Of a DNA stretch of 64,000 nt, positions 57,017-60,655 are shown piece by piece (the first letter of the stretch is position 1; each line of letters opens with the position of its first letter). Made by a program: the position numbers and the translations under genes. Below the pieces are notes generated by a model, which worked only from the letters and a program-made list of their open reading frames with translations, was not told the DNA's origin and searched no databases. Source of the DNA: a virus (Duplodnaviria; Caudoviricetes); the IMG/VR virus record IMGVR_UViG_3300045526_000254, positions 1 to 64,000 of that record; one strand, given 5' to 3'.

Positions 57017-57257
57017 GTGTCTTTTAACAGATGTTGATGCAGTTTTAATTAGTGAAGTTGTTGAAATTGATGCAGAATTCGGAGATCCTGATTGGAAATT
57101 AATCAATCCATATAAAATTGACAGTCAAGGTAATTTAACTCCTTGGCCTAATGTTTCGGAACAAAGGGAAATTAAAATTATTTCAGATAATATACTTACT
57201 GTTGTAGATCCTAAACCGGAAATTATTGAAAAGTATCTTGAACTAACTGCCGAATGA
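57000..57257 (+). CDS. Conserved hypothetical protein
   Basis: Overlaps neighbours at both ends; LINPY..., D.ILT.VDP pattern. Confidence 0.7.
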   Translation: MDKTIKCLLTDVDAVLISEVVEIDAEFGDPDWKLINPYKIDSQGNLTPWPNVSEQREIKIISDNILTVVDPKPEIIEKYLELTAE

Positions 57258-58531
57258 GATTTTACACAAACGTTCAAATGGTCGGGGATCACTTCTTGGT
57301 TCGTGGTTATGAAGATGGAAATCACTTTATGACCCGTGAGAAGTTTAACCCGACTCTTTTTGTCCCTTCTAATAAAAAAACTAAATATCAGACTTTAAAT
57401 GGAGAGTATGTTGAAGCAGTTCAACCTGGATGTGTTCGTGATTGTAGGGAGTTTGTTAAAAAGTATGAGAATGTAGAAAACTTTAAAATCTTTGGAAATA
57501 CTCAATACATCTATCAATACATTTCTGAAATGTATCCTGAGGATGAGATTAAGTTTGATATTGGTAAAATCAAAGTTACTACTCTGGATATTGAGGTTGC
57601 ATCCGAAAACGGTTTTCCTGACGTAGAATCTGCTTCTGAAGAAGTCCTTTTGATTACTATTCAGGATTATTCTTCCAAACAAATTCGTACTTGGGGAATG
57701 GGTCCTTTCCAGAACAAGCAAAAGAATGTAATTTATCGTTCTTTCACTAATGAACGTGATCTGTTGATGGATTTCATCAATTGGTGGATGGTTGAAGAAA
57801 ATATTCCTGAAGTTGTGACTGGATGGAATGTTGAACTGTATGATATTCCGTATCTTGTTCGTCGTTTAGATCGTGTTTTAGGCGAAAAACTGATGAAGCG
57901 TATGTCTCCTTGGGGTCTTGTAACCGAGAGTGAAATTTATATTTCTGGACGTAAGCATATTTCTTATGATGTTGGTGGTATTACTCAACTTGACTATCTG
58001 AATCTTTATAAGAAATTCACTTATAAAGCACAGGAGTCTTATCGTTTGGATTATATTGCCGAGGTTGAACTGGGGCAGAAAAAACTAGATCACTCCGAGT
58101 TTGATACCTTCAAGGATTTTTATACAAAGGGTTGGCAGAAGTTTGTAGAGTACAACATCGTTGACGTAGAACTTGTGGACCGTTTGGAAGACAAGATGAA
58201 ACTGATTGAACTCGCAATCACGATGGCATATGACGCCAAAGCGAACTATGCAGATGTATTTTCTCAGGTGAGAATGTGGGATACAATCATTTATAACTAT
58301 CTGAAGAAGAGGAATATTGTTATTCCTCCTAAAGAACGTTCTGATAAAGATTCCAAGTATGCTGGTGCGTATGTTAAAGAACCTATTCCAGGAAAGTATG
58401 ATTGGGTTGTGTCTTTTGACCTCAACTCCCTATACCCTCACCTCATTATGCAATACGCAATTTCACCAGAAACTCTTGTTACACAAGATGATATTAACAA
58501 TCGTATTGCAGAATTAGAGAAAATGTTGTAG
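57254..58531 (+). CDS. gp43: DNA polymerase gp43, N-terminal part (gp43A: NTD, 3'-5' exonuclease, motif A)
   Basis: MRFYTNV, ExoI LDIEV, ExoII TGWNVELYDIPY, ExoIII YNIVDV, motif A FDLNSLYPHLI; stops 27 codons after SLYP. Confidence 0.95.
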   Translation: MRFYTNVQMVGDHFLVRGYEDGNHFMTREKFNPTLFVPSNKKTKYQTLNGEYVEAVQPGCVRDCREFVKKYENVENFKIFGNTQYIYQYISEMYPEDEIKFDIGKIKVTTLDIEVASENGFPDVESASEEVLLITIQDYSSKQIRTWGMGPFQNKQKNVIYRSFTNERDLLMDFINWWMVEENIPEVVTGWNVELYDIPYLVRRLDRVLGEKLMKRMSPWGLVTESEIYISGRKHISYDVGGITQLDYLNLYKKFTYKAQESYRLDYIAEVELGQKKLDHSEFDTFKDFYTKGWQKFVEYNIVDVELVDRLEDKMKLIELAITMAYDAKANYADVFSQVRMWDTIIYNYLKKRNIVIPPKERSDKDSKYAGAYVKEPIPGKYDWVVSFDLNSLYPHLIMQYAISPETLVTQDDINNRIAELEKML

Positions 58532-58533
58532 AA

Positions 58534-58566
58534 TATCCACACAATATAAATAATAAAGTGTGGATA
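58534..58566 (+). promoter_or_regulatory. Hairpin with late promoter in its loop, upstream of the HNH gene
   Basis: TATCCACAC (58534-58542) / GTGTGGATA (58558-58566); TATAAATA at 58545-58552. Confidence 0.7.
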
Positions 58567-58577
58567 CAGTAAATTAA

Positions 58578-59138
58578 ATGCAACCAAAATTTAACATAAC
58601 AAAAGAACAATTAGAGCAACTTTATATTGTTGAGAACAAAAGTAGAAAAGAGTGTGCTGAATTTTTTGGTTGTTCTGACCCTCTTATAAAACAAAAGATA
58701 CGCAAATATGGACTACAAAAACCAAAACAATTAGAAAATAAGAATAAAGAAAGAAAGGAAATTCTCTATTGTGAAAATTGCGGTTCTTCATTTATAGTTA
58801 GCAGATTTAGAGCAACAAGTGAAAAATGGAAACTTCGTTTTTGTTCTCATTCTTGTTCTACTAAATTTAGATATTTGGGTGAAGAACATAAACGGGCAGT
58901 TTTAAATTCTATTGCTGCCCGTAGAAGATGTAGAATGAAAAACGCTTTTGATGCAACTGCAAATCAACAAAAAATAAATGAGATATACTGTGAAGCAAAA
59001 CAACTAACGGAAGATACTGGTATTCCACACGAAGTAGATCATATTATTCCAATTTCAAAAGGAGGAAAACATCACGAAGATAATTTGCAGATTATTACTA
59101 TGAGTGAAAATCGCAAAAAACATACTAAAATTATTTAA
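58578..59138 (+). mobile_element. HNH homing endonuclease splitting gp43
   Basis: N-terminal HTH-like region, Zn finger CENC...FCSHSC, HEVDHIIPISKGGKHHEDNLQII..SEN.KK. Confidence 0.9.
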
Positions 59139-59139
59139 A

Positions 59140-59304
59140 ATGACTTACGAAGAAGAATATCAACTACGAAACAGAGAGAAGGCAAAACAGGCAAAATATG
59201 GAATGGTATGGTGTTCTTATTGTGATAGAGATATGGTAGGTGATATTGGTAAATGTTCTTATTGTGGAAGATTTAACAACAGAAAGAAAATTCGATATGA
59301 GTAA
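59140..59304 (+). CDS. 54-aa Zn-ribbon protein inside the split gp43 locus
   Basis: MTYEEEYQLRNREKAKQAKYGMVWCSYCDRDMVGDIGKCSYCGRFNNRKKIRYE; CxxC-x10-CxxC; its stop overlaps the gp43B start region. Confidence 0.6.
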   Translation: MTYEEEYQLRNREKAKQAKYGMVWCSYCDRDMVGDIGKCSYCGRFNNRKKIRYE

Positions 59305-60655
59305 TTCTATGTGGAAAGATGTTCGTAAAATGTCCCGTGAAGAAATTGAAGAAGAATTAGATACACTTAAAAAAGTAAGAGAACTTTCTACTAAGGTTAG
59401 TGTTGATAAAATTCTTAATCAAGAATTAGATTTTGAACCATTACAAAAAGTAAATCTTACTATAACGGCAAATGGGTCTCTTTATCGTAGAGTGAAGGGT
59501 ATGCTTCCAGAACTGATGGAAAAAATTTATAATGAACGTGTGATCTTTAAAAAGAAAATGCTTGCTGCGGAGCAGGAATATGAGAAAACGAAAAACAAAC
59601 AACTTGTTAAAGAGATTGCCAGGTGCAATAATATTCAAATGGCAAGAAAGATTCAATTGAACTCTGCTTATGGTGCAATTGGTAATCAGTATTTCCGATA
59701 TTTTAAACTCGCAAATGCTGAGGCGATTACACTTTCCGGGCAAGTATCAATTCAGTGGATTATGAATGCCATGAATGGGTATTTAAATAAAATTCTCAAA
59801 ACTAATGAGGTAGATTATGTTATTGCTTCTGATACTGATTCTTTGTATATTAATATGGGCCCTTTGGTTGAAAATGTATTCAAAGGACGAGAGAAAACTA
59901 CTCAAAGCATTGTGTCGTTCCTTGATAAGGTCTGTCAAGTGGAATTTGAAAAGTATATTGAAAGTTCTTACCAAAAACTGGCGGACTATGTGAATGCTTA
60001 TGACCAGAAGATGTTCATGAAGCGTGAATGTATTGCCGAACGTGGTATTTGGACTGCAAAGAAGCGATATATTCTAAGCGTATGGGATAGTGAAGGTGTC
60101 CGTTATGAAGAACCTAAACTGAAGATCAAGGGTATTGAGGCAATCAAGTCTTCTACTCCAGCACCTTGCCGTAAGATGCTGAAGGACTCCTTTAAGATCT
60201 TGATGAGTGGAACTGAAGATGACCTGATTGAATATATTGATAAGTGTCGTGAAGAGTTCAGAAAACTTCCTCCAGAACAGATTGCTTTTCCTAAATCTGC
60301 TTCTGATATTCGTAAGTATCAATCATCTTCCAGCATTTACGGATTTAAAACTCCATTTCATATTCGTGGAGCACTTCTATTCAATCATTACATTAAAGAG
60401 AAAAAACTTACAAACAAATACTCTTTGATTAATAATGGTGAAAAAATTAAATATATTTACCTCAAAACTCCAAATATTATTCGGGAAAATGTAATTGCAT
60501 TTATTCAAGAATTTCCCAGAGAACTTGGTCTTGACAAATACATCGACTATGACCTACAATTCGAAAAGAGTTTTATTGATCCACTTAGATCTGTTTTAGA
60601 TTCAATCGGGTGGCGAGTAGAAAAAACAGTTACTTTGGAGGCATTTTTTAACTAA
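59297..60655 (+). CDS. gp43: DNA polymerase gp43, C-terminal part (gp43B: fingers, palm motifs B/C, thumb)
   Basis: VSVDKILNQ..ANG, motif B KIQLNSAYG, motif C ASDTDS, KKRY, KIKGIE, ends in TLEAFF clamp-binding motif. Start is ATG 59297 or 59309. Confidence 0.93.
   Translation: MSNSMWKDVRKMSREEIEEELDTLKKVRELSTKVSVDKILNQELDFEPLQKVNLTITANGSLYRRVKGMLPELMEKIYNERVIFKKKMLAAEQEYEKTKNKQLVKEIARCNNIQMARKIQLNSAYGAIGNQYFRYFKLANAEAITLSGQVSIQWIMNAMNGYLNKILKTNEVDYVIASDTDSLYINMGPLVENVFKGREKTTQSIVSFLDKVCQVEFEKYIESSYQKLADYVNAYDQKMFMKRECIAERGIWTAKKRYILSVWDSEGVRYEEPKLKIKGIEAIKSSTPAPCRKMLKDSFKILMSGTEDDLIEYIDKCREEFRKLPPEQIAFPKSASDIRKYQSSSSIYGFKTPFHIRGALLFNHYIKEKKLTNKYSLINNGEKIKYIYLKTPNIIRENVIAFIQEFPRELGLDKYIDYDLQFEKSFIDPLRSVLDSIGWRVEKTVTLEAFFN

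Follow-up and report, generated by a model that had tools for sequence, protein, structure and literature searches.

Conserved extensions at the break of a split cyanophage DNA polymerase gene correspond to the two halves of a predicted alpha-hairpin

When an essential replication gene is broken in two by a mobile element, how can its product still be assembled? The question is raised by a 64,000-nucleotide stretch of phage DNA (the window; positions 1 to 64,000 of IMG/VR virus record IMGVR_UViG_3300045526_000254, a contig of 91 kb that is ~43% complete), which holds a T4-like cyanophage replication module. Its family B DNA polymerase gene is present as two open reading frames (ORFs), gp43A and gp43B, on either side of a free-standing HNH endonuclease gene. 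Both halves carry extra residues at the break: tail A at the end of gp43A and tail B at the start of gp43B. An initial annotation of the window took these for new amphipathic helices that might form a built-in reassembly zipper. Here we describe the anatomy of the locus, the conservation of its tails, their homology to continuous hairpins in unsplit polymerases and the signatures of its mobility. Our preferred reading, with a rough probability of 0.65, is that the tails are a bisected hairpin: the cassette would lie in the turn, the polymerase would be made as two chains whose helices pair in trans, and the split allele would itself be mobile.

Pfam matched gp43A to DNA_pol_B_exo1 (4.6e-21) and DNA_pol_B (2e-12), and gp43B to DNA_pol_B (1.6e-15). 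PF03104 and PF00136 are thus spread across the two halves, which also gave sequence matches in the PDB to the polymerases of RB69 and T4. Motif A lies within gp43A and the K...NS.YG motif within gp43B, as in family B polymerases of the T4 gp43 type, and the split gene is the sole polymerase match in the 91-kb record. Mapped on RB69 polymerase, the break falls just past residue ~430: it follows the palm motif A helix and precedes the conserved SPNG strand (near residue 456), with the fingers ~40 residues further on.

The closest GenBank relative, Synechococcus phage S-SRM01, encodes a single gp43 of 833 residues, in which a linker of 7 residues connects SPETL to the next conserved block. Aligned with it, the window shows 17 extra residues past SPETL at the gp43A end and 33 before the conserved sequence at the gp43B start, bearing out the ~17 and ~30 reported initially. 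The 7-residue linker recurs in 34 distinct intact IMG/VR genes. The earlier statement that intact cyanophage gp43 has a short linker is correct for most genes, with the exception of S-CAM7, L029 and L030, which carry a continuous insertion (see below). The resemblance once seen between the two tails is not significant by local alignment (p 0.14), and their net charges are -2 and 0. DNA searches of 50,697 GenBank phage records did not find the split or the cassette, and a protein search of GenBank phages with tail B matched S-CAM7 alone, which is continuous.

In metagenomes, both tails are conserved. Among gp43A proteins, in a search restricted to lengths of 400-429 residues, ~35 metagenome sequences share the 17-residue tail A end, and a locus search with the gp43B start returned 27 IMG/VR loci bearing both tails. 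An exact scan for a 24-nucleotide block at the start of gp43B found 61 IMG/VR loci; the block lies at the gp43B start in 61 of 61, and all loci with upstream sequence show tail A. Together, both tails are present in at least 54 metagenomic loci. Metagenome assemblies may be chimeric; the same arrangements recur across many independent samples. Invariant positions are N, R, I, E, L and E in tail A and I, L, L and L, flanked by E, K and R, in tail B; they include the heptad-like hydrophobic positions and the charges beside them. The ratio of nonsynonymous to synonymous substitution rates (dN/dS) is 0.21 in the tails versus 0.12-0.15 in the flanking polymerase sequence. Moreover, tail A ends in the same two residues next to either of two endonuclease types, and it does so through different codons, which argues that this end is under selection at the protein level. 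Conservation across loci thus lifts the observation above chance, beyond the amphipathicity of a single sequence.

These data bear directly on the simplest alternative, in which the tails are non-functional read-through and run-in sequence from the insertion, tolerated and unselected. Short extensions are frequent when mobile elements split genes, and non-conserved read-through had been named in the initial annotation among the outcomes that would undo its proposal. The low dN/dS, the positions invariant in at least 54 loci, the common end reached through different codons and the survival of the tails after loss of the endonuclease contradict this reading, which we consider highly improbable and reject.

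A further question had been whether the tails also occur at other split genes. A tail-B profile searched against 1.84 billion proteins found, besides gp43 pieces, only one unrelated repeat protein, indicating that the tails are not a module common to other split genes. That protein, P0142, is a metagenome tandem-repeat protein of 711 residues, with nine repeats each containing a motif like the first ~19 residues of tail B; its profile E value of 6e-9 is summed over the repeats, and it is probably unrelated to tail B.

The counterparts of the tails lie in unsplit genes. At the exact position of the break, an insertion of 36-38 residues is present in three kinds of unsplit gene: that of the cultured phage S-CAM7, whose gp43 of 867 residues is annotated as one coding sequence; that of L030, a divergent T4-like contig with a gp43 of at least 853 residues and ~50% identity; and that of L029/P0099, which falls inside the window's own clade. 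The first part of the insertion aligns to tail A and the second part to the distal two-thirds of tail B. In nucleotide sequence, L029 and split alleles such as L015 are near-identical on both sides and differ in ~22 nucleotides of the turn, which the split alleles replace with the last tail-A codons, a stop codon, the cassette and the first ~13 codons of gp43B. As judged from these alignments, the tails are the two helices of a continuous insertion that is probably older and, for the most part, would predate the split; the existence of three divergent continuous forms is most parsimoniously read as hairpin first and split later.

AlphaFold2 models made with alignments for L030 and for the N-terminal piece of L029 predict that the insertion folds as an alpha-hairpin. 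In L030, helix 1 (residues 408-421) and helix 2 (424-442) are joined by a turn of 2 residues, with predicted local distance difference test (pLDDT) block means of 81-92 over the insertion. In L029, the helices span residues 409-422 and 426-441 around a 3-residue turn, and the pLDDT of the insertion is ~84. The insertion scores above the neighbouring palm segments in both models. A helix, a tight turn, a second helix and I/L/V residues at 3/4 spacing are thus all predicted for the continuous homologues. Because the joint measures 2-3 residues and its anchors are bridged elsewhere by a 7-residue linker, the geometry suggests that the helices lie antiparallel, side by side. The helical hairpin first proposed for the tails therefore survives in modified form: the tails are conserved, and helical and hairpin-forming by homology to the modelled insertion, and the helices are not a novelty of the split, since they pre-exist, continuous, in unsplit polymerases including that of a cultured phage.

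The same comparison accounts for a nearby substitution. In all hairpin-type alleles, including the unsplit, endonuclease-free ones of S-CAM7, L029 and L030, the N that lies two residues ahead of SPETL is replaced by A or S (QYAISPETL in the window); short-linker alleles keep N, as does the tail-bearing protein P0090. The substitution had been read as a possible immunity change at the HNH target. Its presence in unsplit alleles that lack an endonuclease indicates that it marks the hairpin allele type and not specifically immunity, and we rejected it as specific evidence for the latter.

The continuous form also bears on whether the two halves are rejoined covalently, either because the tails are what is left of a split intein or because the gap is removed in RNA, by a group I intron or by bypass, restoring one chain. 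The gp43 gene of phage 25 is said to contain a group I intron. Endonuclease-associated fractured genes with split inteins have been described in aquatic metagenomes by Dassa et al. 2009 (PMC2677866), and there, as here, a free-standing endonuclease gene, preceded by a hairpin, separates the two parts of the gene. The window differs from those genes in that intein motifs and the intein fold are absent, and reassembly, if mediated by the tails, would be non-covalent. A HINT fold takes roughly 130 residues or more, well above the 50 that the two tails supply together. The first residue of tail A is Val or Ile and not Cys or Ser, and tail B closes with Ser/Thr-Lys before a Val and not with His-Asn before a nucleophile. 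A search of intein families gave no match even at E values up to 10, and an Rfam search gave no intron match. Endonuclease-free gaps of 47-171 nucleotides are too short for an intron, and the continuous form is a plain hairpin of 36-38 residues. We therefore rejected the intein and intron readings, which we regard as scarcely credible for this locus.

Several observations point to the bisected hairpin allele as a mobile one. In a maximum-likelihood tree built from the N-terminal ~390 polymerase residues, the split-with-tails state changes 15 times, with at least 7 of these changes forced by well-supported branches, and its branches lie among those of intact short-linker alleles and of alleles with a second-site split. 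Identity between the window and S-SRM01 is 97-100% at residues 211-390, falls to 53-70% in a stretch that runs from the motif A helix to ~100 residues into gp43B, and then returns to ~80-93%. Such a divergent local block, together with a synonymous gradient in gp43B, is the pattern expected of co-conversion during homing or of allelic recombination. The scatter over the polymerase tree and the position within a locally divergent block thus suggest that the split allele moves by recombination. The HNH gene has the sequence features of a putative homing endonuclease, namely an HNH motif, a free-standing position within a conserved gene, a patchy distribution and a co-conversion-like gradient.

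The site between these tails hosts either of two endonuclease types: the HNH type, and a type of 175-181 residues that is weakly GIY-YIG-like. The HNH gene is present in most split loci and reduced to remnants in others. The HNH protein (at 58578-58721) and the second, unrelated type (L005:1549-2091) share a module of 44 residues with 43% identity (E 7e-12), which is helix-turn-helix-like and DNA-binding-like and lies N-terminally in one endonuclease and C-terminally in the other. On sequence, this suggests that a common DNA-binding domain has been shuffled between the two types.

Loss of the endonuclease gene does not restore a continuous polymerase gene. In 13 of the 54 loci, the gap measures 47, 96, 108 or 171 nucleotides and holds no endonuclease gene, and two ORFs with both tails are still present, indicating that the split outlives the endonuclease. 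Some of these spacers contain recognisable HNH remnants; in L006:3841-4013 and L022:3901-4010 the fragments come from the C-terminal coding sequence of the HNH gene, which identifies these loci as deletion derivatives of the HNH cassette.

Which residues, then, does the cassette bring? The initial annotation envisaged that the tails might travel with the endonuclease. The split allele does move between polymerase backbones; the tails are missing from most intact genes, yet the helices are continuous in S-CAM7, L029 and L030, and only the extreme tail ends look cassette-borne. These ends appear to comprise the gp43A stop codon with the two or three tail-A residues before it, and roughly 13 residues at the start of tail B. 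The helices would then belong to the host gene, and the stop end and start module to the cassette, whose residues would replace the covalent turn by about one extra hydrophobic layer.

The start module is marked by the 24-nucleotide block, which begins at the second ATG of gp43B (59309) and is missing from continuous hairpin alleles. Third-position identity is 0.92 within the block and then declines with distance into gp43B to 0.64-0.68, 0.59 and ~0.45-0.5; its synonymous divergence (dS) is 0.31, versus ~1.0 in the flanks. This invariance may stem from recent spread with the cassette or from a constraint on translation initiation. In most loci, GGAG stands 7 nucleotides upstream of the second ATG, which argues that the start peptide is translated. 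From the second Met onward, the opening 11 residues have a helical hydrophobic moment above that of shuffled sequences (p 0.007). An S/T-x-x-E capping pattern is found at residues 9-12 from this Met, with Pro sometimes at position 10, which suggests that helix 2 begins at this point and that the 8 residues ahead of it form an element of their own, strongly amphipathic in character.

Relatives of the window provide a second example of a break with tails. A second gp43 split site, at the tip of the fingers, is present in L029:676-4049, L144:3001-5636 and L147:3001-6299. It lies in the same region as the split of Aeromonas phage 44RR, and both pieces carry conserved helical extensions of their own. 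The gap there holds a 234-residue GIY-YIG-type gene (L029, L147) or no endonuclease gene (L144), and in the L029 model the first finger helix runs on through the second-site tail. A profile search also found gp43 middle pieces of 106-108 residues (L149:1595-1921 and L150:744-1070; P0139 in L149-L151; P0146), each with tail B at its start and the second-site tail at its end. On either side stand endonuclease genes of HNH type, of GIY-YIG-like type or with a faint DUF559/Vsr-like match. The middle pieces are the apparent sign of three-piece polymerases. A candidate third site near residue 545 was rejected, as its products end in out-of-frame translation of normal polymerase sequence; these gp43 products of 539-548 residues (P0047, P0049-P0053, P0099) are frameshifts or assembly errors.

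Taken as a mechanism, the bisected hairpin would work as follows. The starting point would be the 36-38 residue hairpin in the palm loop after motif A, which a minority of cyanophage gp43 genes carry in continuous form. A cassette with a free-standing endonuclease gene would have been placed in the DNA coding for its turn, giving the upstream half its stop codon and last two or three tail-A residues, and the downstream half a new start consisting of a Shine-Dalgarno sequence, an ATG and ~13 residues, so that translation yields the polymerase in two chains. After assembly, the helices would most likely remain packed against each other even with the covalent turn gone. This short zipper at the break would add to a large native interface between the halves, with the turn-replacing residues contributing roughly one further hydrophobic layer. 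Together with its flanking exon sequence, the split allele would spread by homing or recombination and stay split after the endonuclease decays.

Several findings weigh against this account. The hairpin is present and conserved in unsplit enzymes, and its primary role may therefore be unrelated to reassembly. A large interface already joins the two halves of a family B polymerase, and the polymerase of 44RR is split at a different site. In a precedent from ribonucleotide reductase, NrdA of phage Aeh1, the tails are not needed for formation of the a/b heterodimer (PMC3045599). No covariation between the tails is visible by eye among the loci. The 3/4 hydrophobic spacing reported at the outset is present, but in the single sequence the helical hydrophobic moment is only weakly above shuffles (p ~0.08 for tail A and 0.1 for residues 9-29 of tail B). 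The structural models are moderate as whole proteins (mean pLDDT 71.6 and 77.4), and the fold is predicted on continuous homologues. Finally, the first 8 residues of tail B lack a tail-A counterpart of equal length, and the account explains their DNA-level invariance only in part.

The first three of these points are also what favours a different view, in which the hairpin is a lineage-specific surface element with a task of its own, perhaps contact to a replisome partner or DNA, and its turn merely permits a break in the chain; the native interface would then hold the halves together and the tails would add little. We consider this unlikely, with enough in its favour to be taken seriously. 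It does not readily accommodate the replacement of the turn, after the split, by conserved hydrophobic residues on both chains, the like ending of tail A with both endonuclease types through different codons, or the purifying selection that keeps the tails in endonuclease-free loci. The middle pieces of 106-108 residues, tailed at each end, are hard to explain without a role in assembly. We therefore favour the bisected hairpin: the helices probably still pair in trans, and this pairing would contribute to assembly. A bolder version, which we find possible and advance only tentatively, is that the cassette is a portable 'cut-and-clasp' unit that targets the hairpin turn with its own stop, start and clasp peptide. 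The resulting zipper would be necessary and largely sufficient to hold the fragments, and the device would have been reused at the fingers tip, with the middle piece held only by zippers.

Repair by tails is not new in kind, and the closest precedent is NrdA of phage Aeh1 (PMC3045599). There, Crona et al. 2011 found that the tails at a split made by an HNH endonuclease, mobE, are essential for activity, proposed such tails as a general way to neutralise fragmentation and predicted similar ones elsewhere (PMC3045599). The two systems are alike in that an essential gene of a T4-like phage lies in two ORFs around a free-standing HNH endonuclease gene, with short C- and N-terminal extensions at the break, no RNA or protein splicing and a structured RNA upstream of the endonuclease gene. 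The NrdA tails are oppositely charged, are thought to have been brought by the element, and are needed for dimerisation of the heterodimers and not for a/b association (PMC3045599). In contrast, the gp43 tails have charges of -2 and 0, and most of their length corresponds to the two helices of a hairpin that already existed and that unsplit genes carry in one piece. Dozens of loci conserve them, whether the gap contains the HNH type, the second endonuclease type or neither; a function in assembly is putative.

Protein-fragment complementation has also been engineered with zippers, helical pairs being fused to the parts of split enzymes (refs 22-23 and 27-29 of PMC3045599). The gp43 tails resemble these designs in that two fragments of one enzyme each bear a short, predicted amphipathic helix at the cut end; they are natural, would be antiparallel and derive from an existing hairpin, unlike the added parallel zippers. 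Among polymerases, the gp43 genes of Aeromonas phages 44RR2.8t and 25 are described as split into 43A and 43B in work by Petrov, Karam and co-workers, as cited in PMC2677866. In these T4-like family B polymerases, as in the loci described here, a short untranslated spacer or an endonuclease gene lies between the two parts. In 44RR the spacer is 49 nucleotides long, gp43A has 498 residues and gp43B 391, and the split lies at the fingers tip. The split in the window lies ~80 residues earlier, right past motif A. Points of difference from the precedents are the polymerase gene, the site different from that of 44RR, the traceable origin in a bisected alpha-hairpin, the lack of opposite charges and the common occurrence in metagenomes.

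If the bisected hairpin is correct, it would be a second, independent and far more widespread case, after Aeh1 NrdA, of tails that neutralise fragmentation, here in a replicative polymerase. It would also offer a checkable origin story, in which a pre-existing hairpin provides both the landing site and the interaction surface and makes an essential gene splittable at little cost. The natural variants, of which there are dozens, make up a comparative series of continuous genes, genes split with either endonuclease type, endonuclease-free split genes and three-piece genes. This series could be used to study gene fragmentation by mobile elements, and it may yield small natural helix pairs for split-protein engineering.

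The features of the locus are collected in Table 1.

Table 1. Coordinates of the split polymerase gene and of the elements at its break, given as positions in the window.
Feature	Position	Strand	Description
gp43A	57254..58531	+	ORF, 425 residues; N-terminal and exonuclease domains, palm up to motif A
tail A	58478..58528	+	17 codons past SPETL, corresponding to hairpin helix 1; then TAG at 58529-58531
stem-loop	58534..58566	+	9-base-pair stem-loop around a late-promoter-like TATAAATA box, directly 5' of the HNH gene
HNH gene	58578..59138	+	putative free-standing homing endonuclease, 186 residues; Pfam HNH 1.8e-8, PHROG HNH endonuclease families
small ORF	59140..59304	+	54 residues, CxxC...CxxC; stop overlaps the first gp43B ATG
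gp43B	59297..60655	+	ORF, 452 residues from the first ATG; rest of palm, fingers, thumb
tail B	59297..59395	+	33 codons ahead of the resumed conserved polymerase; residues ~13-33 correspond to hairpin helix 2
24-nucleotide block	59309..59332	+	near-invariant start of gp43B, by third-position identity, dS and exact copies in IMG/VR

Two of these features lie within the gap and outside the polymerase halves. The stem-loop folds as RNA with an energy of -15.1 kcal/mol (z -3.48) and is kept, with its TATAAATA box and with changes in the arms, in all HNH-type loci. In loci with the second endonuclease type, TATAAATA stands immediately past the gp43A stop codon, in place of the stem-loop before the HNH start. 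By analogy with T4-type endonuclease genes, the stem-loop and its TATAAATA box may have a regulatory role. The small ORF has weak family matches at best. It is present in just a subset of the split loci (gaps of 773-792 nucleotides), the others having different small ORFs or none, suggesting that it is an optional passenger that the split does not need.

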